From an uncultured delta proteobacterium (GTDB lineage Bacteria; Desulfobacterota; Binatia; Binatales; Binataceae): 64,000 nt of DNA. Under the pieces are notes generated by a model. It ran no database searches, was not told where the DNA came from, and saw only the letters and a program-made list of their open reading frames with translations. Every line of letters begins with the position of its first letter. Position 1 is the first letter of the stretch. The translations under genes were made by a program, and so were the position numbers. Where the stretch lies: assembly GCA_963835905.1 (NCBI GenBank), contig CAWIHG010000005.1, positions 1,396,018-1,460,017 of the forward strand, read 5' to 3'. Positions 11,119 through 61,267 of this stretch are shown in pieces.

Positions 11119-11682
11119 ATGCTGATTCAAGCGACGCAACTGCGCGTCGGCATGGTGCTGGAGTACAACAAGGATCTCTGGCGCGTTATGACCGTCACGC
11201 ACATCACGCCCGGCAACTGGCGCGGGATGGTGCAGACCAAGCTGCGCAACCTCAAGACCGGCTCCCAGACCGAAAACCGCTTCCGCTCTGAAGATCGCGT
11301 CGAACGCGTGATCCTGAGCCAGGTCAAGATGCAGTTCCTGTATCAGGATGGCGACGATTACCATTTCATGAACACCGAGACGTACGACCAGATCACGATC
11401 CCCAAGGATCTGATCGAGGACGTGGCCGGATTCCTGACCCCCAACCTCGAAGTCGAAGTCGAGTTTCATGAAACCACGCCGCTCAACATCACGCTGCCCA
11501 AGACCATCACGCTCAAGGTGGTGGAGACCGACCCCGGCATTAAGTCCGCCGCGGTGACCAACACGCTCAAGCCCGCCACGCTGGAGAGCGGGATGGTAAT
11601 CCAGGTGCCTCATTTCGTGGCCGCGGGCGACACGATCACGATCAATACCGAGACCAAAGAATACGTGTCGCGCTCCAAGTGA
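11119..11682 (+). CDS. efp: Elongation factor P
   Basis: 187 aa MLIQATQLRVGMVLEYNKDLWRV...GMVQTKLRNLKTG; near-canonical EF-P. Confidence 0.9.
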   Translation: MLIQATQLRVGMVLEYNKDLWRVMTVTHITPGNWRGMVQTKLRNLKTGSQTENRFRSEDRVERVILSQVKMQFLYQDGDDYHFMNTETYDQITIPKDLIEDVAGFLTPNLEVEVEFHETTPLNITLPKTITLKVVETDPGIKSAAVTNTLKPATLESGMVIQVPHFVAAGDTITINTETKEYVSRSK

Positions 11683-12920
11683 GAGCGCGCGGACGCGGCG
11701 CTGGCGCTGGGCGCGACCGCCATCCCCCGCGCACGCGTGAGCGCGTAAAGCCGCCGCGCGGGCGCGCCGAGCTGCCCCGCAAGCGTGAGCGCGTAAGGCC
11801 TCCCGAGCGCGAGGTGCGCGCGCCGCGCCCGATTCGCCTGTTTCCCGACACCTACGTCGTCCACACCCAGCCCGGACTCGAAGGCGTCGCGTTTAGCGAG
11901 GTAGCGGCGCGCGTGCCCGGTGCGCGCGAGTCGGGCCGCCGCGTGGTTCCGGAGCGGGCCGGGATGACGATCTTCACGGCGCCGCGGCCCGACGCATTGA
12001 GCGCGCTCCGATGCGCCGAAGACGTGTTCGCGCTGGCCGGTTATCGCGCGGGACTCGACGCGGACAAATCCTCGCTCGACCGGATTCGCGCCGCGGCGCG
12101 CGAAGCGCCGTTCGTGCAGGAGGCGCTCGATGCCCGAGTTCGGTTCCTGCGCGGAGTGCGTGCGGGACGCCGCCTGCGGTTCCGCGTCGTTGCGCGGCAG
12201 GCGGGCGAGCATGAGTTTCGCCGCGTCGATTTGCAGCACGCCGTCGAGCGCGGAATCCAGGAGCGGCCCGATCATACCTGGCGGCTGGACGAGCCGGCGG
12301 CCGACCTCGAGGTCTGGGCCACGATGATCGGCACCGAGCTGTTCCTCGCGATCCGGCTGAGCGACGACACGATGCGCCATCGCGAGTACAAGACCGCGCA
12401 TCTTCCCGGCTCGCTGCGGCCGGCCGCCGCCGCGGCGCTCGCGTGGCTTTCCGATCCGGACTATCGCGACGTGGTGCTCGATCCTTTCTGCGGCGCAGGC
12501 ACGGTTCTGATCGAGCGGGCGCATCTGGGGCGCTACGCGCGGCTGATCGGGAGCGATCGCGACCCGGCGGCGATTCGCGCGGCGCGCGCCAACGTCGGCC
12601 CGCGCTACAAACCGATCGATCTCCAGGGATGGGACGCGGGCGCGATCCCGCTTGGCGACGCGAGCGTCAACGCGATCATCGCCAACCTGCCCTGGGGCGC
12701 GCGCTACTCAACCCACGGCGAGAATCGGCGGCTTTATCCCGACTGGATGGCGGAGTTCGACCGCCTGCTCGCGGCGGGAGGCCGGATGGTGCTGCTGACG
12801 TCGGAGTGGAGAATCATGCAGAACATGATCTCGCGCGGACGAATCCGGCCCGAGAAGATCATCCGCGCCAATATCCTGGGCGCGCCAGCGTCGGTGTACG
12901 TCTGCAGAAAAGCGCGATGA
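11679..12920 (+). CDS. THUMP-domain RNA methyltransferase (N6-adenine/N2-guanine class)
   Basis: SAM motif DPFCGAGT and catalytic NLPWG (DPPY-like). Basic N-terminal extension with a 20-bp tandem repeat (RERVKPP/RERVRPP). GTG start overlaps the efp stop; start uncertain. Confidence 0.65.
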   Translation: MRARGRGAGAGRDRHPPRTRERVKPPRGRAELPRKRERVRPPEREVRAPRPIRLFPDTYVVHTQPGLEGVAFSEVAARVPGARESGRRVVPERAGMTIFTAPRPDALSALRCAEDVFALAGYRAGLDADKSSLDRIRAAAREAPFVQEALDARVRFLRGVRAGRRLRFRVVARQAGEHEFRRVDLQHAVERGIQERPDHTWRLDEPAADLEVWATMIGTELFLAIRLSDDTMRHREYKTAHLPGSLRPAAAAALAWLSDPDYRDVVLDPFCGAGTVLIERAHLGRYARLIGSDRDPAAIRAARANVGPRYKPIDLQGWDAGAIPLGDASVNAIIANLPWGARYSTHGENRRLYPDWMAEFDRLLAAGGRMVLLTSEWRIMQNMISRGRIRPEKIIRANILGAPASVYVCRKAR

Positions 12921-13070
12921 CCGCGGCGCGCGCCAGCGCATCCGCCCGATAGCGGCGGCCCGCAAAACAGGTATCGACAATCACGCGATCGACGGCGCCG
13001 TCGGCGAGCCCCGCTCGCTCAGGGTGGCCGCTCGGACGCGCCTCGCGGTTGGCTCAGACACGCCTCGCGG

Positions 13071-14444
13071 TCACTTGGGCGCGACGGGTGAAAAATACGC
13101 GAGCGTGCCGTGCGCGAGGTTGCGCGCGTCTTTCCCGTCGATCGGCATCACCCACACTGCCGGGGGCGGCACCGTGCCGAGCGATTTGTCGGGCTCAACC
13201 AGCAGCCGAACGCCCGCGAAAACAATCGCGCTCGAATCGGGCGACCAGATAGTATGGGAGAGCGCGAACTGATCGAAGAAGCGATAGGAAATCGCTTCCT
13301 CGTCGGTGGAGAGAAAACGAGTGACGTGGGTGCTCTTGCCGGTCTTCAGATCGATCACCACCCACCAGTAGTAGGGCTTCTCCTTCGGCACCGCGATGTA
13401 GGCCAGGTAGCGCCCGTTGGGCGAAACGAAATATGCGTCAACCGGATCCTTGGTCAGCACACGCGAGGCTGCGGTGGCGATGTCCACCAGCCGGATTCCC
13501 GCGTACACCGGATCATGCGGCACCGTGGTGGTCGAGTAGACGATATGGGCCGAGTCGGGCAACCACTCGAAGCTGTTGTCACCCACCGGCAGGCTGACGA
13601 TCGAATGCGGATGGCTCCCGTCGGCGTCGGCAACCACCAGGTTGGCCTCCACGTTGTAGTTGGCGACGTAGGCGAGATGTTTTCCGTCGGGCGACCAGCT
13701 CGGGGTCATGAACGGTGAGCGTCCGTGCGACAGTATCTTGTCCACCTGCTGGTTGGTTTCCGTCAGGCTCATCAGGGAGACGCGCTCGCTGGTTTCGGGA
13801 TCGGAGCCGGCGGTGTGCACCACCAGGCGGTCTGCCGTGGCGTTCCAGTCGAAGTAAAGCGGCATCCCGGTCATCACGATTCGAATCGGCGCGGTCTTCT
13901 CCACCTGCGCGAGCATCAGGCTCAGCCCCTTGGGCTCGGCAAGCAGGAAGGAGAGATGCTGACTGTCGGCGAGCCATTGCAGGTAGATCACCCGCTCGTT
14001 GGCGCTCTGGAAGATTTGCCTGGCGCCACGACGATGGAGATCGTACACCCACAGGCCGAACTGGCGGCCTTTCTGGTCTTCGATAGCCGACGAATAGGCG
14101 AGTTTCGATCCGTCGGGCGAAAACGTGGGCCATCCGTAATGCAGGCGGCGCTTGGACTCGCTGCCACCACCCATCGCCACGGGAATGAACCCGGGGGCGC
14201 GGCGCACCTGGGTGCCTTCGGACGGGCAGGTCAGGCATTGCGGCTTGGCCGATACCTGCGGGAGGTAATAGATCTGGTCGTCGATGCCGACGTATCCGAT
14301 TGCTCCGGACGGTGTTGCCGCGAGCGCAAATCCGCCGCACAGGAAGATCAAGGCGATCGGGGCGGCGAGTTGAAGCGCCGCGCGAGCGAACCTCCCCCAA
14401 AGACGAGTCATCGTTGACCAGAATTGCGCCGCAGGTACCATCAA
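13071..14444 (-). CDS. TolB-like / WD40-like beta-propeller (PD40) periplasmic protein
   Basis: Signal peptide, then repeated PD40 motifs FSPDGSKLAY, WSPDGKHLAY, VSPNGRYLAY, WSPDSSAIVF. Confidence 0.75.
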   Translation of the reverse strand: MMVPAAQFWSTMTRLWGRFARAALQLAAPIALIFLCGGFALAATPSGAIGYVGIDDQIYYLPQVSAKPQCLTCPSEGTQVRRAPGFIPVAMGGGSESKRRLHYGWPTFSPDGSKLAYSSAIEDQKGRQFGLWVYDLHRRGARQIFQSANERVIYLQWLADSQHLSFLLAEPKGLSLMLAQVEKTAPIRIVMTGMPLYFDWNATADRLVVHTAGSDPETSERVSLMSLTETNQQVDKILSHGRSPFMTPSWSPDGKHLAYVANYNVEANLVVADADGSHPHSIVSLPVGDNSFEWLPDSAHIVYSTTTVPHDPVYAGIRLVDIATAASRVLTKDPVDAYFVSPNGRYLAYIAVPKEKPYYWWVVIDLKTGKSTHVTRFLSTDEEAISYRFFDQFALSHTIWSPDSSAIVFAGVRLLVEPDKSLGTVPPPAVWVMPIDGKDARNLAHGTLAYFSPVAPK

Positions 14445-14542
14445 CGCAAGCGCAATCTGGGATGAGATGCTGTGACCGGCGGCAACCCCGGCAGTCGCGC
14501 CACGGTTGACAGCACGCGTCGATCGCGCACAGAGTTTAGCCC

Positions 14543-14986
14543 ATGAGGCGGGCAGCAGCAGTTCTATTGGCAGCGGTCCTGATGCTGGCGCCTGCGCTGG
14601 CCAACGCGCAGGAAGACCGGATGGATTCGCAGCATCCCAACGAATACACCGACGAAGACTCGCAGCCGCTCAAGCTGGTCAGCTACGTGCTCGCGCCGGT
14701 GGGCTTCCTGCTCGAATGGACGGTGGCGCGTCCGCTCCATTACCTCGCCGACGAGTCGCCGCTGGCGCCGGTGCTGGGCGCGAATACCGATTCCGAAGGC
14801 CTCTCGCCGCCCAATGTGCCGCCGCTTCCGCCGCCCGACGTCATCACGGAGAGCAACGAGCATATCGAGACCACCATCGTTCCCGCTCCGGAGAGCGCGG
14901 TTGGATACCAGACCAAGCCCCCATCGGCACAATCCGCGCCGTCCGTGGCGACACCGCCATCATCGTCGCAATCCGTGATGCACTAG
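14543..14986 (+). CDS. Secreted Pro-rich hypothetical protein
   Basis: Signal peptide MRRAAAVLLAAVLMLAPALANA. No known domain. Confidence 0.5.
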   Translation: MRRAAAVLLAAVLMLAPALANAQEDRMDSQHPNEYTDEDSQPLKLVSYVLAPVGFLLEWTVARPLHYLADESPLAPVLGANTDSEGLSPPNVPPLPPPDVITESNEHIETTIVPAPESAVGYQTKPPSAQSAPSVATPPSSSQSVMH

Positions 14987-15040
14987 CCGCGCGCGTTGCG
15001 AGAGCTACCGCCGCCGATCGCCGAGCTTGCTCAAAGTACC

Positions 15041-15092
15041 GCAGCTTTAGCCTGTGGGTGCTTGCTCCGAATGGCACAGGCTTTAGCCTGTG
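15041..15092. repeat. Clustered hairpins (agcctgtg / cacaggct x3) at the left edge of the low-GC island
   Basis: Seen in sequence: agcctgtg-N18-cacaggct-tt-agcctgtg, and nearby ccccttcgc direct repeats. GC content drops from here. Confidence 0.35.
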
Positions 15093-15341
15093 AAGCCAGC
15101 AGTGCATCAGTCACCCCCTCCTGTATCCTCCCCCGTGTCGAAAAACGGTGGAGGAAAGGAATTGCAAGCGCGCATCCTGCTCCCCTTCGCGAAGCTCCTT
15201 TTTTCCCCTTCGCCCCCATTATTTTCATGGGGGAGAATCCAAGAGGGGGTGCCCGCACGCTCCGACGAACTGGCAGGATCGGTAACACTTTAATCCGGCA
15301 GCCTAGGTGACAGGCTCCGGCGCTCCGCCTGCGAGGCGGCA

Positions 15342-16382
15342 CTAAGCTCTGAATTCAGGATTCTCAGGCAGCGGCGCGACGGCGGCGCCTGGAAACTGAA
15401 CCAGGTCGGTTCGCCACCAGACCAGAAAGGTCTCGAAGTCCAACGCGTCGACGGCCAAGCCGACCAAATTCTCCGCCAACACGTCAACGTCCCGATCATC
15501 CAAAGTCGCTCGCTTAGGGGAATTGGAACGGTAGAAGTAGAGTATGAACCCCGGATACAGTGCAGTATGCGGCGGCAAGTCGTTTATCTCCGCCTGGCTC
15601 CCGGAGGGTCCGCTCGGCTCCGTTCCCGGCATACCGTTTGAAATCACCAGATTTCTCTCAGAATCGTCGTCCGGTTGGCCCGGGATCCACAAAGCATACG
15701 CTGGGCTGACGACTTTGGACTGCCGGTCAAGCCGAAGGAACCTCCCAACGGCATCGTCGAGCAGGGTGTTGGGGTTCAGGGGATAACCAAGTCCATCTTC
15801 CGGACACGAATGCTCCCAGTCGTCTATCATCTCCGGCTGCGCGTCGTCCGGTAATATCGCGAAGAAGCTCCCCTTCAATATATCTATTCTCTCGCGCACC
15901 TTTTCGCGGACGAAGCTGCCCGTCAGTTGCTCTAATAGATACTCCGCCGCTTTGTCGGATTCGTTCACCGGATGCCAGACAAGCCTGGTCCTTTGAGGAT
16001 AATGGACAGTGCTGGTTACGTCATCGATAAGGTACCGCACTCCGACCTTTAGGCCGCTCAGGCGGCGCAGTATTTCTGGCGGTAGGTCGAGGTCCACATC
16101 GGGATCGTCAATCCAGCAGTCGATAGTGACTCGCTTGCCGATGGGAAGTTCTTCTACGCCGCTTTGTCGCGCTTCCAGAAAATCACACCAATACTCAATC
16201 TGGGCGCCGGGGCGCATCGTGGTCCTGAGTGAAGCATCGATGTGTCGTATCCACAATCCCGTAAAGAATTTGACGTTATCGGCACGCTCCATCCAGTCGC
16301 TGTCGACGCCCAGGACCTTCGAGACGTAGTCGGGGTCGACTCCTTCAACCCGCAACGAAACTCGGCTGTACTGCTGTTTCAT
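15342..16382 (-). CDS. Hypothetical protein (346 aa), possibly tandem DUF4279-like
   Basis: Lower GC (~55%). The N-terminus VSLRVEGVDPDYVSKVLGV resembles DUF4279-type proteins by recollection. Its start overlaps the end of rhs fragment 3. Confidence 0.55.
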   Translation of the reverse strand: MKQQYSRVSLRVEGVDPDYVSKVLGVDSDWMERADNVKFFTGLWIRHIDASLRTTMRPGAQIEYWCDFLEARQSGVEELPIGKRVTIDCWIDDPDVDLDLPPEILRRLSGLKVGVRYLIDDVTSTVHYPQRTRLVWHPVNESDKAAEYLLEQLTGSFVREKVRERIDILKGSFFAILPDDAQPEMIDDWEHSCPEDGLGYPLNPNTLLDDAVGRFLRLDRQSKVVSPAYALWIPGQPDDDSERNLVISNGMPGTEPSGPSGSQAEINDLPPHTALYPGFILYFYRSNSPKRATLDDRDVDVLAENLVGLAVDALDFETFLVWWRTDLVQFPGAAVAPLPENPEFRA

Positions 16383-16700
16383 GATCCTGCAAGGCCAGCG
16401 CCGCGACCATCAGCGTCGCGATACTGCCGCTCGAATTCACAAGAGCAATCGTACTGCCGAGCGCATCACGCAGCAACGCTACGCTTCCCGTCGAATCGGT
16501 GCTCACAAACCCGTCATCAAGCCACAACCCCGACAGAATGTCGATCTTTCCGCTGATCGATGACTGCACCCGCGCCGCGTTGATCCCGTCGTTCACGTAA
16601 TTGTCGATGATTGTCCCGGTGTTCTGCTGGACCCTTCTGCCCAGCGCGTCGTACCTTGTTTGTGCGGCGGACGAGAGTATCTGAGCGGGACGTGCTCTGA
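16345..16700 (-). pseudogene. Orphan rhs fragment 3 (YD-repeat / core region only, no start, truncated)
   Basis: Translation ...TRYDALGRRVQQNTGTIIDNYVNDGINAARVQSSISGKIDILSGLWLDDGFVSTDSTGSVALLRDALGSTIALVNSSGSIATL then runs out of frame; the expected YEPFG...NPY...RARYY...DPxGL tail is missing. Confidence 0.55.
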
Positions 16701-16873
16701 CCGCAGAACCGCAGATCTGCCGGAGATACGCTCTCGATGTGGACCTATCTCTGGGTGTAGGTCAGGGGTGCGGACCGTTTCCACGCGCCGCCTTCTAACC
16801 GCGGATCGCTCCGCCAATCGCGTAGGCATGAGCGAACTGAGGCGTTAAAGATTCCGCGTCTGACTGCTCCTAC

Positions 16874-17377
16874 TCAAGCGGCCCAGCTCAACACGAGAAT
16901 TATCAACAGCGCCGCTACCACGGCCCACGCGAAGGCACTGGCGAGAGCGTCAAACTCCAGCGGGCCATGAAACGTTCCCATGGTGTTCATAAAACTGACC
17001 TCAACTGGCCCAAAGTTGAGGGTGTCACCACCCCTGATTCGCGTACTCCGCTCAATCCGCCGTCCGTTGATAAAGGTTCCGCGCGTCGAACCCAGATCCT
17101 CGACAAAATATCGATCGAGAAACCGCCGCGTAATTTTGGCATGATGCGCGGCGACTTGAGGATCCGCGATCAGCACGCCGCAGTCACTCGCACTGCCAAT
17201 CAGCGTCTCACGCCAGCCGAGGGTGTGTTCGTGGCGGCCTGAACCGTCGATCCTCAGCAAGTACGTCGGTTTTTCCTCGGGTGGGCGAGGACCATCATAG
17301 CCAGGGATGGGCCTCAAACCGAACCGACCGGGAGGACCGGTGGCTTGCTGAGACCGATTATGGCGATATTTACCCAT
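16874..17377 (-). CDS. FHA-domain protein with C-terminal transmembrane anchor
   Basis: FHA signature GSASDCGVLIADPQVAAHHAKI...VEDLGSTRGTFINGRRIE...GDTLNFGPV, and C-terminal helix FAWAVVAALLIILVLSWAA. Confidence 0.65.
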   Translation of the reverse strand: MGKYRHNRSQQATGPPGRFGLRPIPGYDGPRPPEEKPTYLLRIDGSGRHEHTLGWRETLIGSASDCGVLIADPQVAAHHAKITRRFLDRYFVEDLGSTRGTFINGRRIERSTRIRGGDTLNFGPVEVSFMNTMGTFHGPLEFDALASAFAWAVVAALLIILVLSWAA

Positions 17378-17525
17378 ATAATATAAAGAACGCGCGATCG
17401 CTGACGTTTGCTATTGCTAATGTGAGGTTCTTCCGGAGAACTCTCCCCATATCGCCTTGCGCGCAAAGAGGAACATGCGCTTGTCTTCGCTTTCTCCGAG
17501 CACAGACTTCCGGAAAGTCGACTGC

Positions 17526-18077
17526 TCACGCAGCCGCGCCGGATTTGCCGCTGACTCCGGACTTGTGGGCGCTATGTCTCACTTTGAACGGTACAATGAT
17601 TCCAATTGCACAAATAGCTCCGACTGCGATCAGGGGCCAACTCTGCAGTGCTAGCCCTTCCACAATGCCGACAGTCGCAAGCGCGGCGGATCCAATTCCA
17701 ATCGGAACTGCCCGACGTTCCTTCGGTACAAGGCGCAGCCAGAGAGCGACAATGAAGGCGGTCGTCGAAAGCGGAACCACTGCTAAGTGATCCTCGGTTA
17801 GAAGAAATACCGCCAGCGCCAGTCCTGATAACGAGAACAGGAAGCCGATCGCCTCGATGACTAAACGAAACGTCAGCGAGGAAGAGGTGCGCATCTGCCA
17901 TCCAAGCGAAAGGCCCACAACCCCGCCTAGTGCGCTTGAACCGGCAAGTATCGGCAATTCGGCGGCCCCGGCGACACTCCAGAAGCAATAACCGATCACT
18001 GCTCCGACCAGCACGCCTACGGAAACGAGTCCAGCCAAAAACGCAATATCACGGTTCTCCTCGTTCATCGTGGGCAC
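17526..18077 (-). CDS. Multi-TM membrane protein, candidate immunity protein for the upstream rhs-tip toxin
   Basis: 183 aa with about five predicted TM helices. Lies immediately downstream of the orphan toxin domain and has low GC. Confidence 0.5.
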   Translation of the reverse strand: MPTMNEENRDIAFLAGLVSVGVLVGAVIGYCFWSVAGAAELPILAGSSALGGVVGLSLGWQMRTSSSLTFRLVIEAIGFLFSLSGLALAVFLLTEDHLAVVPLSTTAFIVALWLRLVPKERRAVPIGIGSAALATVGIVEGLALQSWPLIAVGAICAIGIIVPFKVRHSAHKSGVSGKSGAAA

Positions 18078-18134
18078 CTCCTCAGCTGAGCACGCTTACT
18101 TCCGCGGCGAGTGTCGCTTGATCTCCGAACGGAG

Positions 18135-19105
18135 TTAGGGGCTGGGAGCCGCCGGTCCTGCTATTCCGGGGGCACCTGCAGCACCTTGAAAGAGCATTGA
18201 ATCTATAAGCCCGTCTTCAACGATTGCGACGGTGGCGCCCACGGCCATTCCGAGGAGCACACCTATCGCGATACCGGGCAGGCCCCCGATCTCACCAATG
18301 GCGGCGCCGATTTCGGCAAACTCCTCGATGTCTAGAGGTATCAGTGCGGCGCGGGCGAAGAGCTGCCCAGTCGAGGGCTGAATGCCAGAAAGGCTGCCGG
18401 GTGCGCCGACGCTCGGTCCCGACACAGCGGCCATCTCGCCTGCCCCGATGCCCGCGTCTGCCTCGGCAACGCCAAGCGGGGAGTTGGCTCCGGATTGCGC
18501 GGCTTCGTATGCAGCGATCTGGCCCGCAGTATCATTCTCAGATGAATCGCCTCCTGAACCGCCGCCTCCAGTAGCCGAGTTGTTTCCGCCTGCACCTCCA
18601 GCGCCGGGGCCCGAGTGGACCCACTCCCAACCGTTAAAGGTTTTCACGGCAGCCCACGCGTCGTCGGCCGATCCTCCGCCGCGACCCGTGGGGTCTGTGA
18701 GCTTCGTCGGAGCGTCCCCGACATACGCGAAGAAATTGGGCTGGCCGCCGCCGAGTCCCAGCGGGTCGGACGAGATGAAGCGGCTGCGAGGCGCGCCCGA
18801 GCAGCCGTCCTGAGCCGCCCGGCGAAGGACCCCCACAGCGGATTGTAATAGCGCGCGCGCATGAAGTAGAGCCCGCTTTGATCCAACTCGCGCCCCGCAA
18901 ACGCGTAAGGATTCGTCGTCGATGCGCCGCTGGTCGAGGTCTTGCCGAACGGCTCATACGTGTCTTGGGTGGCCAGACTTCCGCCCGAGTTCACGAGCCC
19001 GATCGTACTGCCGAGCGCGTCGCGCAGCAACGCCACGCTTCCCGTGGAATCGGTGCTCGCAATTTCATCATGCGGTGACAGAACTGAGGAGCCTTGGTCG
19101 AGCAT
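18135..19105 (-). pseudogene. Orphan rhs C-terminal tip 2 with Gly-rich toxin domain (frameshifted)
   Basis: Frame 1 gives STDSTGSVALLRDALGSTIGLVNSGGSLATQDTYEPFGKTSTSGASTTNPYAFAGRELDQSGLYFMRARYYNPLWGSF. A frame switch then gives RFISSDPLGLGGGQPNFFAYVGDAPTKLTDPTGR plus a ~190-aa Gly-rich domain ending in a glycine-zipper helix GLPGIAIGVLLGMAVGATVAIV. Confidence 0.6.
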
Positions 19106-19152
19106 TCGGTGGCCGCCAGGCGTTGCGGCTATCGCGGGGAGGGACGATACGA

Positions 19153-19920
19153 TTATCTCAAGAAATAAGGCGCTATGATAAACAGGGCACCATCAAGCAG
19201 CGAGTGTGCGATCACGCAGGTTCCAACGTTCCGTCGCCAGACGTACAAAAGGACCAAAACCAGTTGTGGCAACAGGAACGTGTAAAGCACCTTCAAGCCC
19301 CAATCGCTGTGAGCAATCATCGAGCCCGCTAACGCCGCACAAGCGCCCCAGAAAATGCTTCCTGACCAGGTTTCGAATCGTTCTATCACATAGCCACGGC
19401 CGCATTCTTCGACCATCGCATCCCAAATCACCGCCACCGCTCGAGCCCATACGGGGAGGGCGAGGGCACGTTCAATTACGGATGTAAGGGCGGGATTGGC
19501 ATCTTGGATGCCGAATACCCAGAAAAGAATGTAGGCCTCGGCGTAAGCCAGAAGAAAACAAGAAAAAACCCCTGCGAGCGCGGGCGGAATTTCAGTAAGA
19601 GTTGGCAGCCGCCAGCCCGCCGACGCCAAAGGCTGGCGCTCCCAGCGGGTGATTATTGCCGCGAGGAAGACTATTGGCGAAAGAGCGTAAACCGCAGCTG
19701 CACCGCGCCCCAATTCGCTGGAGAACCGAACGTGTCCCAATACCTCGGTCACCTGCGGAATATCCGGAAGCAATACGAGGCCATAAGCCGACAGGACGCC
19801 CGCAAATAAGGCAGCTGGATTGACTCGTCGACGCAGGGCCGGCTCATCTGCGCATGTTTTAGTCCCTATTTTCAGAGCGTTTGGTTGTTCTCCTGTCGCA
19901 TTGCTACTGGTCACATGCAA
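19153..19920 (-). CDS. CPBP family intramembrane metalloprotease (Abi/CAAX-protease-like), candidate immunity protein
   Basis: Motif 1 EECGRGYVIERF (EExxxR), motif 2 FWGACAALAGSMIAHS (FxxxH), motif 3 HSLLDGA. Start overlaps the stop of the upstream toxin ORF by 10 nt. Confidence 0.7.
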   Translation of the reverse strand: MHVTSSNATGEQPNALKIGTKTCADEPALRRRVNPAALFAGVLSAYGLVLLPDIPQVTEVLGHVRFSSELGRGAAAVYALSPIVFLAAIITRWERQPLASAGWRLPTLTEIPPALAGVFSCFLLAYAEAYILFWVFGIQDANPALTSVIERALALPVWARAVAVIWDAMVEECGRGYVIERFETWSGSIFWGACAALAGSMIAHSDWGLKVLYTFLLPQLVLVLLYVWRRNVGTCVIAHSLLDGALFIIAPYFLR

Positions 19921-20900
19921 GCTCCGGACAGACTCAGGCCGTTGGGTGCTTGCATCATAGGGGCATCCGGCCGCTCAAGGCTCGCTGCGTTCAGAATGGC
20001 CCGCGCCGCAGAACCGAGTGTCGAGCAACCGGAATAGAATGAGGCCTGCGTCGTGGTGTTCGGCACGAAATCCAGATTCGAGTAACTCGGCAAATTCATC
20101 ACGGGCGGGAGATGAATGCGCGGATCTCCAAATATATATATCGCGAGTTTTCCGAGTAACGTAAAGAATACTCCTCCAAAACCCAGAATATACTTGGGCT
20201 TCGGCTTCGGCGTTGGCGTTGGTTTCGGCTTCTGCTTTTGCTTTGGCGCTGGCGGAGGAGGATCGGGTGGTGTCGGAGGCGGGCCGGGGCTGCCGCCCCA
20301 CACTTCGCCCGTTGGATCGACGAAGTTCATCGGGCTGTTGCCGACATACGCGAAGAAATTCACCTGGCCGCCGCCGAGACCGAGCGGATCTTGCGAGATA
20401 AAGCGGCTGAGCAAGGGATTGTAGTACCTCGCGCGCATGAAATAGAGCCCGGATGCGTCCAGCTCGCGCCCCGCGAACGCATACGGATTCGTCGTCGAAG
20501 ACCCGCTGCGCGAGGTCTTCCCGAACGGCTCGTATCCGTAACTCGTCGCGATGCTGCCGCCCGAGTTCACGAACCCAATCGTACTGCCGAGCGCGTCGCG
20601 CAGCAACGCCACCGCTCCCGCTGGAATCCGTGCTCGCAAACCAGTCATCGAGCCACAGCCCCGACAGAATGTCGATATTCCCGCTCATCGAGGACTGCAC
20701 CTGGACGGCGTTAAGCCCGTCGTAAACGTAGTTGTCTATCGTTGTCCCGGTATTCTGATGGACCCGCCGCCCCATCGCGTCGGACCGCTCGAATGGCAGC
20801 GTGTCAACCAGAAGCCGATGCGGTGTGTTTTCGCGCACGTGTACTCCGTAGTGAGAAGTGCTATAGTAATTCGGGATGGATATGAGGTTGCACAGGCGAA
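19911..20900 (-). pseudogene. Orphan rhs C-terminal tip 1: RHS core end + Pro/Lys-rich linker + small C-terminal toxin (one +1 frameshift)
   Basis: ...YVYDGLNAVQVQSSMSGNIDILSGLWLDDWFASTDSSGS, then a frameshift (one inserted g), then AVALLRDALGSTIGFVNSGGSIATSYGYEPFGKTSRSGSSTTNPYAFAGRELDASGLYFMRARYYNPLLSRFISQDPLGLGGGQVNFFAYVGNSPMNFVDPTGE. Followed by PPPTPPDPPPPAPKQKQKPKPTPTPKPKPK and a ~110-aa low-GC toxin with a hydrophobic helix YILGFGGVFFTLLGKLAIYIFG. Confidence 0.6.
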
Positions 20901-21274
20901 TATCCGTAATCAGCAGAAGACTGGAGAGTTATACATCGCCGGGAAGAGAATATAGTCACTCCGGGAGAGGATCGAACGAACCCACGTGGAAAATAGAAAA
21001 CGTCAAGAGTTCTCGCGTGTTCTCTCTTGATCATTGGCTCCCGCTGAGTATTCCGAAGCCGCCAAACCGCCCCCGATGAGCACTGCGAACCGGCGGATGA
21101 GCCGATATACGGGCCTGCGAACTCACCCAGCTATGGCGCAATCCGGCGCGGGCCTGCCTCGGCGGAAGCGCGGGAACCGGGCTGCGCGGATAACGCCGGC
21201 CCGGCGCCGCGATCGCACCGCTGTCGCGAAGTATATCGGACGTGATATGGCCTGAACCTACAGGAGATATCGCG

Positions 21275-22078
21275 ATGCCGCGCATTAAGACTGCCTCGAT
21301 AACGATCAACTACGAGACCTACGGCGAGGGCGAGCCGCTGCTGCTAATCATGGGCTTCGGGATGCCGGGGGCCGCATGGTTGCCGTCGCTGCCGTTCCTG
21401 ACCGGCTTCAAGTGCATCTATTTCGACAATCGCGGCACCGGACTTAGCGACAAGCCCGAGGGGCCGTACACGGTCGAGGACATGGCCGACGACGCCGCGA
21501 ACCTGCTCGACGCGCTGAAAATCGCGCGGGCCAAGGTGTTCGGCGTCTCGATGGGCGGGATGATCGCGCAGGAGCTGACCCTGCGTCATCCGGAAAAGGT
21601 CATCAGGGTCGTGCTCGGATGCACGATGCCCGGCGGTCCGAATGCGAAGATGGCGGCGCCGGACGTGATCGAGCGCCTGATGACGGCGAACAAGATCATG
21701 GGGAGCGAGCCGGAGCGCGGGTTGGACCTCCTGATGCCGGCGCTGTATCCGCCCGAGTTCATCGCGGCGCATCCGGAGATCAAGGAAATGATGCTGGCGG
21801 GGATGAAGATGATGCCGCCGACGCCGCCGGAGACCGCCGACCGCGCATTCGCCGGAATCGCGCAATTCAACGCGCTGGATCGCCTGGGTCAGATCAAGTG
21901 TCCGGTGATGATCGTGCACGGCGACAAGGACGTGCTGGTGCCGCCCGAGAACGCGCAACTGATCAAGAGCCGCATCCCGCAGGCCGAGATGTATATGATC
22001 GCGGGCGCGGGGCACGCGTTCCAGTCGGTGGACCTGGTTGGAATCCACCAGCGTATCGTCGATTGGCTCAAGCGCTGA
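21275..22078 (+). CDS. Alpha/beta hydrolase
   Basis: MPRIKTASITINYETYGEGEPLLLIMGFG, nucleophile elbow GVSMGG, late catalytic His. RBS aggaga precedes ATG at 21275, inside listed ORF 21242..22078. Confidence 0.8.
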   Translation: MPRIKTASITINYETYGEGEPLLLIMGFGMPGAAWLPSLPFLTGFKCIYFDNRGTGLSDKPEGPYTVEDMADDAANLLDALKIARAKVFGVSMGGMIAQELTLRHPEKVIRVVLGCTMPGGPNAKMAAPDVIERLMTANKIMGSEPERGLDLLMPALYPPEFIAAHPEIKEMMLAGMKMMPPTPPETADRAFAGIAQFNALDRLGQIKCPVMIVHGDKDVLVPPENAQLIKSRIPQAEMYMIAGAGHAFQSVDLVGIHQRIVDWLKR

Positions 22079-52039: not shown

Positions 52040-52500
52040 TGTGCCACCATCATTACGGCTTTTCCGCCCAGCATCACCGTGGATGGAATGCCTGGATATT
52101 TTATCGCGGTATGAAATGTCGTCGTGGTGTCGACTTCCACGTAGGTTGCCTGCGGACTATTCGCACAATACTGTGCGGGACACGCCGCAACACTGCTGGT
52201 GGTTACGCACGTGCACTGTTTCGCCGTGGCGCTGAGGGCGGACAGGTTGGACCCATCGTCTTTGGCCGCGGTCTCCATTCCCGAGGAATCGGCAGCGGTA
52301 ATCACGCTCTGAGAACCATACTGCGCGCCAGCGCGCGCCGCATTGGCAACCTCGATGTTGGCGTAATAGAGCCGCCCGAAGTCGGCGGCCGCGAGCAGCA
52401 GCAGCGCAAGCACTGGCAGCGCAACCGCCATTTCCACCATGGCCTGACCGCCGGATTTTCGGTGCAGGCCGCTTTTGGATTGTCGTGACTGATTATTCAT
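52036..52500 (-). CDS. TadE/TadF-like pseudopilin
   Basis: N-terminal GGQAMVEMAVALPVLALLLLAAADFGRLYY. Confidence 0.65.
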   Translation of the reverse strand: MNNQSRQSKSGLHRKSGGQAMVEMAVALPVLALLLLAAADFGRLYYANIEVANAARAGAQYGSQSVITAADSSGMETAAKDDGSNLSALSATAKQCTCVTTSSVAACPAQYCANSPQATYVEVDTTTTFHTAIKYPGIPSTVMLGGKAVMMVAQ

Positions 52501-53857
52501 ATAATGCCGTTGACCTGATTGGAGAGCCGTTGTCGAGCGATGAGTAGTTGTCCCCGAGCACGCTGTTTCCCGACACCGATATAGTGTCCCCGACTATGAT
52601 CGTGTAACCGTCGGAGCTGCTGCTTCCTGAATAACTTACCGCGGTAGTTGAAAAGTAAATCGCTCCGTCGAAGGTCGAACCCGAGGAACCGGTTATGGTG
52701 CTTCCCTTTGAGCCGGTCGGAATACTGCGGTCCTCAAAGAAGAGAATCCCGGCGTAAGTGCCCGATGTTGGCGCGCTCAGGTGTGCGGTGTTGGATCCGC
52801 TGAGCGCAATCGGTCCGTACGAGGAGTAACCCTGAGTGTTGTAGAACGTTACTCCGGCGCCGGATATGTTTGCCTTTGAGGCAGTTACCTTCAACCCTCC
52901 TCCATCGAGTATGTAGGTTCCGGAATTGAAAACAACTGGATTGTTTCCGCTAACCTGGATGCCACCGCAGTAGACGCCCTGGTTCAGATAGGTGATTCCG
53001 CTACCGGTCCCGACATGTACGTTCGTGTAGTCGCAGGCTCCGACCGTGGGAGCTGCCAGATAGGAGAGCGGATCCGGCGCGGGCGCGATGTTCGTCACCG
53101 GGGTTGGTGAAAAGCCGCTACCCGAGTATCCACCGGCTACGCCGATGTCGGCGGCGGTCAGGGTTGCGCCGCCGTTCGAGTTAAGCGCAGTGGCGTCGTT
53201 GGAGTCGACAATCGCGCCGCAAGAGAGGCTGACCGAGCTGCTACCGCTAATGGTGAGACCGCCGGAGGCGGTCGGATCCAAAGCATAGACACAGGCGGGG
53301 CCGTTCATTGATGCGGCAACCGATCGCGCAGAAACGTCGACCGTGTCGTAGCCTAGCACCCGCATGAAATAGGTTGGCTCCGGCCGGCTGACGACCACCT
53401 CCACGTACCGCGCGTTGCCGGCGTACTGTCCACCGGAGGGTGGATTATTCACCGTCACCGTTACGCCCTGGTTGCCATTGGAAAACCCGTTGGCGGCGCT
53501 GGCGGTGTCGGCGGCGGTGGCGGCGCTTCCATTCAGTCTCAGCGCGATGGCGCCGGCGACCGCCGCTGCATCCGCAGCCGTTTGCATGTCCCGCCGAGCG
53601 GTCCAAAACTGGCCCACGTCGACGGCCAGAGCGGCAAACCCCATCAGGGTGATCAACCCGATGGCGACAAGCACCATGACCTGCCCGGAACTGCCTCTTG
53701 CCCCGAGTCCCGGCGCAATGGCGCCGGCCTGCCTGCCCCGCGCAACAGCGGTCGCGTTTGCAGTGAACCTGTCGATCTTCGGAGCCTTAAACGGGGAACC
53801 TACCGACGCGGCCAGATTGCTCTGACCGCGAATCCTGGGGGAAATCCGACCAAACAT
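52493..53857 (-). CDS. TadG-like Flp-pilus-assembly protein
   Basis: N-terminal GQVMVLVAIGLITLMGFAALAVDVGQFWTARRDMQTAADAAAVAG (TadG-type domain), then a Gly/Ser/Thr-rich beta region. RBS gggagg precedes the start. Confidence 0.65.
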   Translation of the reverse strand: MFGRISPRIRGQSNLAASVGSPFKAPKIDRFTANATAVARGRQAGAIAPGLGARGSSGQVMVLVAIGLITLMGFAALAVDVGQFWTARRDMQTAADAAAVAGAIALRLNGSAATAADTASAANGFSNGNQGVTVTVNNPPSGGQYAGNARYVEVVVSRPEPTYFMRVLGYDTVDVSARSVAASMNGPACVYALDPTASGGLTISGSSSVSLSCGAIVDSNDATALNSNGGATLTAADIGVAGGYSGSGFSPTPVTNIAPAPDPLSYLAAPTVGACDYTNVHVGTGSGITYLNQGVYCGGIQVSGNNPVVFNSGTYILDGGGLKVTASKANISGAGVTFYNTQGYSSYGPIALSGSNTAHLSAPTSGTYAGILFFEDRSIPTGSKGSTITGSSGSTFDGAIYFSTTAVSYSGSSSSDGYTIIVGDTISVSGNSVLGDNYSSLDNGSPIRSTALYE

Positions 53858-54977: not shown

Positions 54978-56234
54978 ATGGTTCAAGACGCAAATTTGCG
55001 CCCTGCTCGATCCCAACAATCTTCAAAACAACGGCGGCCCGAAGCAGACCATCGCGGTGCAACCCCTACAGCAACTCCGACTGCGACCCCAATGCCCATC
55101 CCGATCATCACGACCGTGGCGGGAAACGGCCGCGAGCTGTTGGGAGTCGGGGGTCCGGCGACGAGCGTCGCGATTGGCTTTGTGAGCGGCGGTATCTTCG
55201 ACTCGTCGGGCAATCTCTACATTTCCGCGCTACAGGACAATGAAGTACTGAAAGTGTCACCGTCAGGCATCCTCACGGTTGCAGTCGGCACAGGCGAGGG
55301 AAACTACAGCGGTGACGGCGGCTCCGCGCTGAATGCCACGCTGAGTCAACCGGGGCCGCTCGCCGTCGACTCGGCTGGCGATCTCTTCATTTCCGATTTC
55401 AAGAACTACGTCGTGCGAGAGGTAAACCCCGCGGGAATCATCAACACGGTCGGCGCGTTCCAGGCGGGTGGCTTCGCCGGCGACGCGAACGGAAATATGT
55501 ATGCGAGCGAGATTGGCGGCGACGTCGTGCACGAGATAACTCCCGGCGGAGTCGTCATGACGATCGCGGACACTTACCACGACGCCGGCTACTCCGGCGA
55601 CGGAGGGCCGGCTAAGGCAGCATTGCTCGGCGACGTGGAGGGTCTCGCGATCGACGGTACCGGGAACCTCTATATTGCCGATAACGGCAACGCAAGAATT
55701 CGCGAGGTCATCAATGGGATCATCAGCACGGTAGCTGGCAACGGGATGTTCGGAACTTACGGGGAAGGCGACGGCGGCCCGGCGATCGATGCGCCGATTG
55801 TCGCGAATCAGGTGGCGGTGGGCCAGGATGGAAGCATCTACATCAACGGCAACAACAGCATCTCGAAAATCGATCCGCAGGGCATCATAAACACAATCGC
55901 CGGCGACGGGAATTTTGGTGCAACGATGTTCCAGTTCCCGCCGGGCAGCCTCGCGATCGACGCCGACATGGAGGGCGCCGGACTTCCAGCGCTGCTGCCC
56001 AACGGCGACTTCTATGTTGCGTGCTGCGAATCCAACATCGACAAGGTGAGCGCCGCCGACGGAACGATCCAGGTCTTCGTGCGCGGATACGACTTTACCG
56101 GGTTCGGGGAGGATCTTGCCGTTCCGATAGAACGCCAGGTACCCGACGCGCTGGAAACCCCTGCTCGCTTGGCAAACTTCCACGGAGGCCAGACCCGACA
56201 GCATCACCGTGTCCCACAGCGCTTCCGGCAATAA
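54978..56234 (+). CDS. NHL-repeat beta-propeller protein (start uncertain)
   Basis: Six NHL-like blades (GNLYISA, GDLFISD, GNMYASE, GNLYIADNGNARIREV, GSIYING...). No clear signal peptide; the real start may be at M(55092) or in another frame. Confidence 0.55.
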   Translation: MVQDANLRPARSQQSSKQRRPEADHRGATPTATPTATPMPIPIITTVAGNGRELLGVGGPATSVAIGFVSGGIFDSSGNLYISALQDNEVLKVSPSGILTVAVGTGEGNYSGDGGSALNATLSQPGPLAVDSAGDLFISDFKNYVVREVNPAGIINTVGAFQAGGFAGDANGNMYASEIGGDVVHEITPGGVVMTIADTYHDAGYSGDGGPAKAALLGDVEGLAIDGTGNLYIADNGNARIREVINGIISTVAGNGMFGTYGEGDGGPAIDAPIVANQVAVGQDGSIYINGNNSISKIDPQGIINTIAGDGNFGATMFQFPPGSLAIDADMEGAGLPALLPNGDFYVACCESNIDKVSAADGTIQVFVRGYDFTGFGEDLAVPIERQVPDALETPARLANFHGGQTRQHHRVPQRFRQ

Positions 56235-58187: not shown

Positions 58188-58672
58188 TGTGCTGCAGTAT
58201 TTCGTCCCGTGTACATATTGATAAAATGATGTCGCCCGCGGTCATTTCTCAAAGTTTCGCCGAGAGACGCTTAGTCTTACACTGACCTTTAGTGTTGTGT
58301 CCGAAAGGCAACTCATATCACCCTGAATCCGGCGTGAAAAATACTCATTCAGACCCTGCGGTAGTCTAAGGTGCTCCGGAATGGTCTTGCTCTGCCGTCT
58401 CAAGACCAGGAGAAGAGTCAGGTCAACGCGCTTGAGCGCACCCAGCCGGTGCTGCCAATGGGGATGGGCTAAATCGAAGGCGCTCGCCGCCATCGCTAAC
58501 TCAGGAAGGCCGCTCGGCTCGACCTTCTATTGAGGTTCTACATCGGACCGACCAGATGAGCGAGGTGATCTCGGCGCCGGAACGCTCTCGGGCTTGAACG
58601 CGTCTCCGGCGAGCCGCTCGATGGGGATTCCCGAGGTACGGTCTTGTTAGACAACAGCGTTAAGGGCTGCAC

Positions 58673-59530
58673 CTACCCCGTTTCAGTAGACAGAGTTGGG
58701 CTTGTGCGGAATTCCGCTGGATGGCTCCTTTGGTAGTTGATAGGCGAGAGATAGTCGAGGGCCGAATGGCGGCGGTGAGGTTTGTACCAACCTTCGATAA
58801 AATCGAACACCGCCATCCGCGCCTGGGCCTGGGTTCTGAAGTTTTGTCGGTTGAGCAGCTCGGATTCGAGAGTGGCGAAGAAGCTCTCGCACATGGCGTT
58901 GTCAAAACAGTCGCCCACCGAACCCATCGAGGGCCGCCCCCGGCCTGTTCGCAACGCTTCCGAAGGCGACCGACGTATATTGGCTGCCTTGGTCGGAATG
59001 ATGGATCACGCCGGCGGGACGGCGCTGTACCAGCGCCATGTCAAGGTCTTTGAGTACCAGCTCGGTACGCAGATAAGTCTTCATCGCCCAACCCACTATC
59101 CGGCGGCTGAAGACGTCGAGCACCACGGCCAGATAGAGAAGGCCGGCCCAGGTTGGAATGTAGGTGATGTCGGCCACCACAAACGGTTGGGCGCCGCGGC
59201 GGTGAAGTTGCGTTCGACCAGGTCGGGCGCCGGCCGGGCGGCGCGATCACGCACCGTAGTGATGATCCAGTTGCACCACCCCCGGATCACGGTCCGGGGG
59301 CCGGCTGCGCGCATCAATCGCGCCACGCGTTTGATGCCCGCCCTAATGCCTTGCTCCGCGAGGTCGACAGGGATGCGCGGCGCGCCATAGGTCCGGCGCG
59401 AGCGACGATGGATCTCGGCGATCCGCGCGCTCAACTCGGCGTCCGCGCGAGCTCGTGCCGAGGGCGGACGCTTGAGCCGCGCGTAATAGCCACCGGGGGA
59501 GACCGCCCAGTACGCGGCACCTGGTGGCAA
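58673..59530 (-). mobile_element. IS3-family transposase (orfB) remnant, fragmented over three frames
   Basis: ORFs 59096..59530, 58902..59180 and 58673..58954 together give ...RRTYGAPRIPVDLAEQGIRAGIKRVARLMRAAG.../...VADITYIPTWAGLLYLAVVLDVFSRRIVGWAM...IHHSDQGSQYTSVAF.../...DNAMCESFFATLESELLNRQNF...ARMAVFDFIEGWYKPHRRHSALDYLSP. That is a DDE transposase with frameshifts. No orfA was found. Confidence 0.7.
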
Positions 59531-59919: not shown

Positions 59920-61267
59920 TCAGGCGGTGGCGTCATTTTCGCGGCCGGTGAACTGATATGGATTGGTGCTCGATGCGCGCGACGCCGTCGTGTTCCCGAA
60001 CGGTTCGTAGGTGTATGAAGTCTGAATTGCTCCTGCGGAATCCGCGAGCGCCAGCGTGCTTCCGAGCGTATCGGTCAGGAAGTCGCGACTGCCGGCGGAG
60101 TCGGTCCTCTGAAAGTACTCGTCGATGTTCAGCCCGGTGAGTAGATTTGCCGACGGGCTCCCGGACTGGATTTCCTGCACTGGATTCAGGCCGTCATACA
60201 GGAACTGGGTCGTGGTTCCTGCAATAGTTTTGCTGACCCGCCGGCCGAGCGCGTCGTACCCGAAGCTGGCCGTCACCGCACCGCTGATCCCAACCAAATG
60301 ATTGCGCGCATCCCAGCTATAGGTGTTGCTGCCATCGTTGGTCAGGTTTCCATTCGCATCATAGGTCATCACGGTCCCGTTGAACGAAGTCATCTCGTTG
60401 TCCGCGTTGAACGTGTTCCCCGTCACCGCTTGCGGCAGATTCGTCTCCGCCATGCTGCCCGTCTTCTCGATGACGCGCCCGTCGGCATCATAGCTGTATT
60501 CCAGGTCGCCGATCTGGTTGCCCGCCAGCGTCCAGGTCATCCCGCTCACCCGCGAGTCGGCGTTCCTTTGGCGCAGAGGGCCCCTCTCGCTGCCCCTTCG
60601 CTTTCGCTCAGGGCTGCGGCTCCAATCGGGCGCCGAAGCGGCGGCTCAGGACAGGCTCCACTATATGTCACCACTATCCCATTGGGCAGCGTGAGCTGCG
60701 TCCTTCGATTGGCGTTGTCATATTGGAACGCAACCGAGCCGGTTCCCTGCGTAACTCCTGTCAATCGGTTCGCATTGTCCCACGTGTACGAGACCTGCGT
60801 CTGCCCCGCCACCGTCAGCGTCGCCCGCCGGTTCGCGTTGTCGTAGCTGTAGCTCACCTCGCCCAGCGGGGTCTGCTCGTCGGTCAAACGATCGAGACCG
60901 TCATAGGTCCGCGCGATCGTCCCGGCGATCGAGTCCGTCGCTCCGGTGAGGCGATTTCCGCCGTCCCACGTATAGCTGATTGAGCTCTGATATCCGCTGC
61001 CGTTGTAGCCATAGCCCGCGAAGGTGCGGCGGTTGAGGCCATCGTAGCTGTATTTCGTGATGTTTCCATCGCGATCGGTGTGCTGGGTCAGGTTTCCGTT
61101 ACCGTCATAGGAATAGTTCTCGACTGCATTCAGCGCGTCTGTGCGCGAACTCCGGCGGTCCATGTTGTCGTACGTGTACCTGGTCTGGTTCGCGTTGGCG
61201 TCGGTGACTGAAGTGAGGTCGCCGCCGGTATAGCTGAAGTGGACCGTAGCGCCCGCCGCGTTGTTGA
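59920..61267 (-). pseudogene. rhs-family YD-repeat protein, internal fragment (no start, C-terminus truncated, internal frame break)
   Basis: YD repeats: YSYDGNGNLTQHTDRDGNITKYSYDGLNRRT, YTWDNANRLTGV, FQYDNANRRTQLTLPNGIVVTY. A frame break near 60550-60662 is followed by EYSYDADGRVIEKTG...YDANGNLTNDG...YDALGRRVSKT...YEPFGNTTASRASSTNPYQFTGRENDATA, then a stop exactly where RHS cores continue (GLYY.RARYY). There is an upstream in-frame stop at 61268-61270 and no Met. Confidence 0.65.

Follow-up and report, generated by a model that had tools for sequence, protein, structure and literature searches.

Why would a bacterium keep several pieces of rhs genes interleaved with intact small genes, at a place where no full-length rhs gene is found? 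This question is raised by an island of ~6.2 kb that lies in a 64-kb stretch of DNA (hereafter the window) belonging to the 2.34-Mb contig CAWIHG010000005.1 of an uncultured bacterium from a Binataceae-type lineage. In Enterobacteria (E. coli Rhs elements and the Salmonella rhs-orphan locus), orphan rhs-CT/rhsI modules (CT, C-terminal) reportedly lie downstream of a full-length rhs gene, as Jackson 2009, Poole 2011 and Koskiniemi 2014 are said to have described. What we found in the window belongs to a type of locus already described, here in a lineage new for it, and is no new system: the island is probably a degenerate orphan Rhs cassette array that lacks a main gene and that is kept mainly for immunity. 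All statements below on missing rhs genes of this bacterium refer to the 64 kb of the window.

The rhs core ends and their lesions

The island is on the minus strand throughout, running from 21.2 to 15.0 kb on the map of open reading frames (ORFs), and consists of three copies of an rhs core end interleaved with four intact ORFs that encode a CPBP/Abi-type membrane protein, a protein with five transmembrane segments (5-TM), an FHA-domain protein with a transmembrane anchor (FHA-TM) and a protein of 346 aa. The ORF map, Pfam profiles and hydropathy agree with the gene order, coordinates and strand described in an earlier account made from the letters of the window (the sequence-only reading), and TIGR03696 matches and ORFs bear out its central proposal that these are orphan rhs C-terminal cassettes followed by intact candidate immunity genes. 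The first core end (tip1, 20785 to 20307) spans (S)DAMGRRVHQNTGTTIDNYVYDG to NFVDPTG and was recognized from its match to TIGR03696 (RHS repeat-associated core; 86.6 bits for a cut-off of 32.5), from tblastn matches in two frames and from its alignment to the other two copies. The second (tip2, 19081 to 18684), which spans IASTDSTGSVALLRDALG to DPTG, scores 37.7 and 27.8 bits against the same profile, split over two frames, and is also delimited by repeat spacing and alignment. The third (frag3, 16654 to 16415), which spans YDALGRRVQQNTGTIIDNYVNDG to NSSGSIAT, was delimited by repeats, tblastn and alignment and covers only the part upstream of the TIGR03696 domain. When aligned to each other, as the sequence-only reading had suggested doing, the three pieces turned out to be 77-82% (~80%) identical in DNA. 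Their common design would be that of a cassette made of ~0.25-0.5 kb of rhs core-end homology, a toxin tip and one or more immunity genes; we refer to the cassettes of tip1, tip2 and frag3 as modules 1, 2 and 3, and to the two toxin domains as CT1 and CT2.

In tip1, a 1-nt insertion within 20609-20622 shifts the frame, with ~300 nt of uninterrupted homology remaining on its 3' side. In tip2, a 47-nt insertion within 18787-18839, between RARYYNPL and RFISSDP, is seen from repeat spacings (1576 versus 1623) and leaves ~100 nt of homology after it; no other copy of this insert was found in the window. Frag3 breaks off after GSIAT (16415) and does not reach the Rhs-associated core motif, just as the sequence-only reading had noticed, and its toxin tip is deleted. 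That reading had also taken the toxin frames to be decayed and the immunity genes to be intact, a contrast that holds strictly for module 3 alone: the four non-toxin ORFs are intact, but CT1 and CT2 are open as well, and the lesions of modules 1 and 2 are both located in the rhs homology leaders. Could the frameshifts then be sequencing or assembly errors, tip1 and tip2 being ordinary intact orphan cassettes? The lesion of tip1 indeed consists of one additional base within a run rich in G, as errors typically do, and the contig is a long one of metagenome style. However, the 47-nt unique insertion in tip2 is not a type of error, the housekeeping genes of the window are uninterrupted, and the contig L001 from an independent short-read assembly (run ERR11594399) is 100% identical to the window over the 5.2 kb that it covers (11278-16477), truncation of frag3 included. 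Since L001 ends inside the frag3 repeat and spans the junction between frag3 and the 346-aa gene, this junction is no artefact. Even with both indels taken as errors, the cassettes would still be without a main rhs gene, and we regard this explanation as very improbable.

If the cassettes are orphans, is tip1 perhaps the stump of a truncated main gene? A YDA(L)GRR boundary is the common start of tip1, of frag3 and of the rhs pieces in the related contigs L002 and L086, as one would predict for cassettes belonging to a single system, which argues that tip1 is itself a cassette. None of tip1, tip2 and frag3 combines a long YD-repeat shell with an N-terminal delivery domain in one ORF, and PF05593 (YD-repeat) gave no match in them at E<=0.1 because the pieces are too short (<=~160 codons of core). 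When the window was searched by tblastn with Rhs proteins from related contigs, only the three pieces and a separate, divergent YD-repeat fragment outside the array (59923-61163, minus strand; PF05593, 89.9 and 43.3 bits) were found, so that the sequence-only reading was right in seeing no full-length rhs gene next to the array or elsewhere in the window. It was also right in calling the rhs sequence at 59.9-61.3 kb an internal fragment: the piece is frameshifted near 60549, and its 3' cut adjoins a broken transposase gene of the IS3 family of insertion sequences. We considered this fragment as the missing main rhs gene and rejected it, since its protein is only ~44-56% identical to the tips, it is internally frameshifted and it is cut by the insertion sequence. 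A scan of metagenomes with the tip1 core end gave 80 loci with a best identity of 47%, none of them a close relative with a full-length rhs gene, and no relatives of the island's tips or of its CPBP, 5-TM and FHA-TM proteins were found in these 80 loci.

The base composition of the island also sets it apart. Its GC content is 0.589, compared with 0.639 elsewhere in the window, and it is the lowest-GC 6.2-kb stretch of the window, ~2 standard deviations below the mean of 0.635 (standard deviation 0.021). The sequence-only reading had described a fall from 68% to 50-58%; the drop is real and atypical, but its size is modest (~0.64 to 0.59), and the part at 18.2-19.0 kb has a GC content of 0.64-0.68. 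The contrast with the flanks is sharper in the GC content at third codon positions (GC3), which is 0.57-0.67 for the tips and the cargo genes and 0.78-0.86 for the flanking genes; the rhs pieces have values of 0.70-0.82. Rhs genes classically combine a core that resembles the host with tips that look foreign.

The 346-aa protein and its relatives

Module 3 gives the clearest view of what the island may be kept for. Its remaining gene encodes the 346-aa protein (16382 to 15342), and the start of this ORF overlaps the run-on frame of frag3. The sequence-only reading had considered the protein to be without precedent, and its full-length relatives are indeed rare (five clusters among 5.8 billion); nevertheless, the claim is contradicted by the identity of its N-terminal half, by the family of its C-terminal half and by a homolog that lies behind an Rhs toxin in another genome. 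A profile search against 1.84 billion representatives showed that the protein is a fusion of two domains: residues 2-137 match stand-alone proteins of ~145 aa, while residues 135-335 match stand-alone proteins of ~200 aa that form an unnamed family, not in Pfam. The stand-alone matches of the N-terminal type pass the Pfam cut-off for DUF4279 (PF14106) in 12 of 12 cases, and a profile-profile comparison of the N-terminal domain with DUF4279 gave an hhalign probability of 99.9% (E 7e-32); the 346-aa protein itself remains below the threshold of a direct PF14106 match, with one homolog at E 0.064. By these comparisons, the N-terminal half is a predicted, divergent DUF4279 (FdL-Imm5) domain. DUF4279 is known as the FdL-Imm5 immunity family (PMC9424270) and has been proposed as the immunity partner of the Salmonella SPI-19 Rhs-Ntox33 effector (PMC13304343).

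The position of the relatives points in the same direction. In the four contigs L088-L091, a stand-alone gene for the C-terminal domain starts 33 nt past a 408-428-aa Rhs-derived protein, and in L092 such a gene starts 39 nt past a 161-aa protein; the C-termini of three of the upstream proteins score 20.5-22.2 bits against Ntox37 (PF15535), which is sub-threshold for its cut-off of 27.8. In L003, a contig of a metagenome-assembled genome (MAG; GCA_036706575.1), a 345-aa full-length homolog starts 31 nt past the end of an intact Rhs toxin, the tip of which aligns to the Ntox37-like end in L089 (BLASTP E 2e-4) and has no match to the Ntox37 model. Thus, in L003, L088-L091 and L092, the 346-aa family and its C-terminal domain are found in the position of immunity genes, directly downstream of a toxin, co-directional with it and in several contexts. 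This makes the ~200-aa family a likely partner of Ntox37-like toxins and probably a new immunity domain family. Considering the DUF4279-type N-terminal half together with the placement of relatives after Rhs or Ntox37-like toxin ends, the most fitting reading of the 346-aa protein is an immunity protein with two domains, a kind called "polyimmunity protein", the toxin of which was deleted in the window. A full-length AlphaFold2 (AF2) model of the protein was not usable (predicted local distance difference test score, pLDDT, of 45). For module 3, the retention of immunity after deletion of the toxin is clear, since the toxin is gone, the 346-aa gene is intact and the L003 homolog follows an intact Rhs toxin end.

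A side observation concerns the toxins of these relatives. The short Rhs-derived proteins of L088-L091 (4681/4741-5967) and one in L002 (1651-2073) carry a variant core end, PFLYQG.E.E.T.P.PLYYSG, that replaces the usual motif, and that in L088-L091 is followed by a Gly-rich hydrophobic stretch and then by the Ntox37-like end. This variant core end may mark a distinct subtype of Rhs tip.

Toxin tips, membrane proteins and the FHA-TM protein

What do the two remaining tips encode, and are they paired with the genes behind them? CT1 (20306 to 19911; 131 aa plus stop) is made of a Pro/Lys-rich linker, one hydrophobic helix (ILGFGGVFFTLLGKLAIYI) and a tail of ~70 aa, as judged from its ORF, sequence and hydropathy. 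CT2 (18683 to 18135; 182 aa plus stop) is Gly/Ala-rich and carries a C-terminal glycine zipper, GGLPGIAIGVLLGMAVG, in which a regular-expression search found GxxxG four times in succession; this zipper sits within the only hydrophobic helix of CT2. The two frames are open over 131 and 182 codons, a length that is stop-free in 1% and 0.8% of shuffles, respectively. Neither tip matched a family in Pfam, NCBIfam or PADLOC, and a tblastn search of plasmids with CT2 gave no match.

Each tip is followed by a gene for a polytopic membrane protein. The CPBP/Abi-type protein (19914 to 19153) starts at a GTG that overlaps the TGA stop of tip1 (GTGA), with an alternative TTG start at 19920; it matches PF02517 (CPBP/Rce1-like) with 30.4 bits for a cut-off of 22.4, with motif variants that were judged by eye, and has five hydrophobic segments. 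The 5-TM protein (18068 to 17526; 180 aa from an ATG, with an alternative GTG at 18077) starts 57-66 nt past the stop of tip2 and likewise shows five hydrophobic segments by hydropathy; its 180-aa form is recorded from the source genome as a singleton cluster, and it matched no family in Pfam or NCBIfam. By position, the CPBP gene would be the candidate immunity gene of tip1 and the 5-TM gene that of tip2. The two tips look membrane-targeting, one by its single hydrophobic helix and the other by its glycine-zipper helix, which fits membrane proteins as partners; position and membrane character together suggest that CT1 and CT2 are membrane-acting toxins, each with a membrane-protein partner. 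A CPBP protein of L003 and a protein with four transmembrane segments (4-TM) of L086 were also considered as relatives of the CPBP and 5-TM proteins of the window, and proved to be unrelated to them.

The P. aeruginosa Rhs-family protein Tse5 is a glycine-zipper toxin that depolarizes membranes. In S. aureus, the glycine-zipper membrane-depolarizing toxin EsxX is matched by polytopic membrane immunity proteins, ExiCD, the genes of which are also found as orphans in strains without the toxin (PMC12744356). Module 2 resembles EsxX/ExiCD in that a hydrophobic helix of CT2 holds the fourfold GxxxG zipper and that a polytopic membrane protein is encoded next; no sequence similarity to these systems was detected.

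The FHA-TM gene (17377 to 16874; 167 aa) is the part of the island that fits least well. Its product matches PF00498 with 64.2 bits (cut-off 20.7, E 1.5e-17), with the FHA domain at residues 58-123, and also passes the PF16697 (YscD-cytoplasmic) model with 49.2 bits; hydropathy places one C-terminal transmembrane helix at residues 145-163, ending four residues short of the stop, so that the protein appears to be tail-anchored. In alignments to the solved FHA domains of Dun1, Rv1747 and CEP170, GR is replaced by GS and SRxH by AAHH, so that the phosphothreonine-contacting Arg (of GR) and Ser (of SRxH) are both absent, and it is doubtful that the protein reads phosphothreonine in the classical way. 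That the gene is without precedent, as the sequence-only reading had proposed, agrees with our homolog searches, in which no full-length relative was found: a word-based search gave no match at E<=1e-5, and a tblastn search of plasmids gave only generic FHA-domain matches. The ORF is absent from the called genes on record for the source genome. We see four candidate explanations for it: an additional factor belonging to module 2, immunity for a module since lost, truncation of a gene, or hitch-hiking.

This gene is also the reason to ask whether the island is a mixed one, in which FHA-TM, perhaps together with 5-TM, is an unrelated membrane signalling or secretion module lying among rhs scraps. 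In favor of this, FHA is not a known immunity family (PMC3482391 mentions it once, in an unrelated connection), a low-GC spacer of 148 nt precedes the gene as its own, and its best family matches are FhaB/FipA-like and YscD-cytoplasmic-like, below or outside membership. Its GC3 of 0.62, however, matches the island cargo rather than the host, the gene occupies the position after a toxin tip and ahead of the following rhs leader, the lack of the Arg and Ser that bind phosphothreonine speaks against kinase signalling of the classical type, and no kinase or phosphatase gene is found near it on the ORF map. We therefore keep the mixed island as a tentative possibility that we doubt, and still read the island as a whole as an Rhs array.

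Taken together, profile searches of the kind that the sequence-only reading had proposed gave TIGR03696 in tip1 and tip2, PF02517 and PF00498 as expected, but neither PF05593 in the three pieces nor DUF4279 directly in the 346-aa protein.

Comparison with related genomes and with known Rhs loci

Is the island an old part of this chromosomal region or was it inserted? A search with a flanking PD40/Tricorn-like protein gave two MAGs (one Candidatus Binataceae, the other labelled Thermodesulfobacteriota) at ~62% identity. In their contigs L004 and L005, eight or nine of the flank genes keep the order that they have in the window and the island is absent: the gap between the GNAT-family gene and the small secreted-protein gene is only ~1.2 kb, where the window has a hydrolase gene and the 6.2-kb island. 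This short gap holds an ORF of ~200 aa in both contigs, with a Rieske-type look, judged by eye, in L004. The island is thus an insertion relative to related genomes. In the comparison with relatives that the sequence-only reading had called for, no full-length rhs gene was seen ahead of related arrays, no contig extending far enough upstream.

At the corresponding site of a closer relative, L002, with flank proteins that are 83-93% identical, lies an array in a different arrangement: a piece of rhs, a homolog of the 346-aa protein (348 aa, 51%), a further rhs tip and the terminal part of one more paralog of the 346-aa family. In L086, an 80%-identical homolog of this family lies between the 4-TM gene and another rhs leader, and L086 937-1981 is 86% identical in DNA to window 16382-15335, from the start codon to 7 nt past the stop. 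The flanks outside the ORF (4-TM gene and rhs leader in L086, frag3 and non-coding DNA in the window) are unrelated, and the gene appears to move or recombine as a unit.

In L002, we also observed that a continuous rhs core end (505-555 and 1673-1842, corresponding to window 16654-16604 and 16601-16432) is interrupted, to within 2-3 nt, by an insert of 1117 nt, which consists of the 348-aa gene alone (a 49-nt leader, the ORF and a 21-nt trailer) and continues the frame of the rhs piece upstream of it. Such abutting breakpoints are not predicted by simple deletion models. This insert and the confinement of the L086 homology to the ORF raise the idea that immunity genes are captured as gene-sized cassettes into rhs core ends that act as "landing pads", building a toxin-free protective array. 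We hold this idea to be improbable; if it were true, the tail-anchored FHA-TM, which would not read phosphothreonine, could be of a new kind, as an accessory or a second immunity factor to an Rhs toxin of the glycine-zipper type.

How would the island work, if it is indeed a degenerate orphan array? A cassette of an intact locus stays silent as long as its tip has not been joined to a full-length rhs gene by homologous recombination within the core-end homology, and immunity genes can shield the cell when neighbours make the same toxins. The island would correspond to the far end of an Rhs polymorphic-toxin locus, now degenerate: module 3 has lost its toxin, and the leaders through which modules 1 and 2 would recombine contain indels; the main rhs gene may have been either lost or relocated. 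The intact remainder would comprise the CPBP protein, the 5-TM protein, the bivalent protein that joins a DUF4279-type to an Ntox37-partner-type domain and possibly FHA-TM, so that the most likely function of the locus, should it still have one, is immunity, by genes retained against Rhs toxins that circulate in related Binataceae.

Alternatively, the array may be a live cassette reservoir, with a compatible full-length rhs gene elsewhere to which it still donates tips downstream of the lesions. The frames of CT1 and CT2 are open against a chance expectation of 1% and 0.8%, the homology of tip1 3' of the frameshift would leave ~300 nt for recombination, the host-like GC3 of the rhs pieces suggests a long residence, and our view covers 64 kb of a 2.34-Mb contig. 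Against such a reservoir, there is no full-length rhs gene in the window, the only other rhs piece being broken and ~50% identical in protein; only ~100 nt of homology follow the insertion in tip2, and module 3 has no tip; the arrays of L002 and L086 are also rhs scraps between immunity-type genes; and no type VI secretion system (T6SS), VgrG or PAAR gene was found among the ~30 other window ORFs that were scanned, which are metabolic or housekeeping genes. We consider a live reservoir rather unlikely.

Several points nevertheless weigh against a degenerate array kept mainly for immunity. The ORFs of CT1 and CT2 are open as well, so that, module 3 aside, the immunity genes are not demonstrably better kept than the toxins. 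No homologous CT1/CPBP or CT2/5-TM pair was found elsewhere, the likeness of the relatives' toxins to Ntox37 is below the Pfam cut-off (22 versus 27.8 bits), and the FHA-TM gene fits no known immunity family. Finally, a compatible full-length rhs gene may lie elsewhere on the >2.3-Mb contig.

The comparison with known arrays helps to place the locus. Like the enterobacterial orphan rhs-CT arrays, the island shows core-end homology with a PxxxxDPxGL-type motif, a variable tip and a small downstream gene, with a tip GC below that of the core and with several cassettes in tandem on one strand; the series of core end, tip and adjacent same-strand gene expected of an orphan rhs-CT/immunity array is thus present. 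It differs from them in that no full-length rhs gene precedes it, its leaders carry indels, one cassette is tipless and the lineage is of the Binataceae type. Arrays of polymorphic-toxin cassettes, polyimmunity loci and fused polyimmunity proteins have been described (PMC3482391; Zhang et al. 2012), and the island resembles them by its tandem same-strand immunity-type genes of unrelated families, by a content that varies between relatives and by the fusion of two immunity-type domains in the 346-aa protein. Unlike a polyimmunity locus, which is never interrupted by toxin cassettes, it is interrupted by two tips and three rhs pieces. As for DUF4279 systems (PMC9424270, PMC13304343), the N-terminal 137 residues of the 346-aa protein match the profile by hhalign and the family lies downstream of Rhs toxins, whereas the protein itself scores below the Pfam threshold and has an extra domain of ~200 aa, and the toxin partner in related loci looks Ntox37-like rather than Ntox33.

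Some features of the surroundings deserve mention. On the 5' side of tip1, 400 nt of non-coding DNA separate the array from a divergent alpha/beta hydrolase gene (21242-22078) with a host-like GC3 of 0.86. Since this gene is absent from the syntenic gap of L004 and L005 and yet has a host-like GC3, the gap between the GNAT and secreted-protein genes seems to be variable apart from the rhs array; the hydrolases adjoining the arrays of the window and of L003 were compared as potential orthologs, which was rejected at 24% identity. PADLOC gave no defence-system match on the island, and Rfam and tRNA scans gave no match either; the empty tRNA scan leaves no tRNA-linked integration site. No recombinase gene adjoins the array, and scans for promoters and terminators gave signals that were not above those of shuffles. 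Between the convergent 346-aa and secreted-protein genes, a long, imperfect hairpin was observed at 15095-15270 (26-nt arms at 15112-15137 and 15226-15251; fold of the 176-nt RNA at -84.2 kcal/mol, z = -4.66 versus shuffles); it is unique in the window, has no Rfam match and might act as a terminator in both directions or form some small structured element. Next to the 60-kb rhs fragment, the IS3-family transposase gene (58660-59530) is itself decayed, being split into three ORFs (HTH_21, rve and rve_3), and genes for an NHL/teneurin-NHL repeat protein and a TadE/G-like protein (54978-56234 and 52493-53857) lie on the other strand a few kb away, with no link to rhs established.

Altogether, the general understanding of Rhs systems is unchanged by this locus, and its upside lies in the FHA-TM gene and in the gene-sized insertion of L002. 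What it adds is an extension of Rhs cassette arrays and of orphan immunity retention to an uncultured Binataceae-type lineage, a likely role for an unnamed ~200-aa family as partner of Ntox37-like toxins, and a clear example in which the toxin was deleted while a fused two-domain immunity gene, as we read it, stayed intact.

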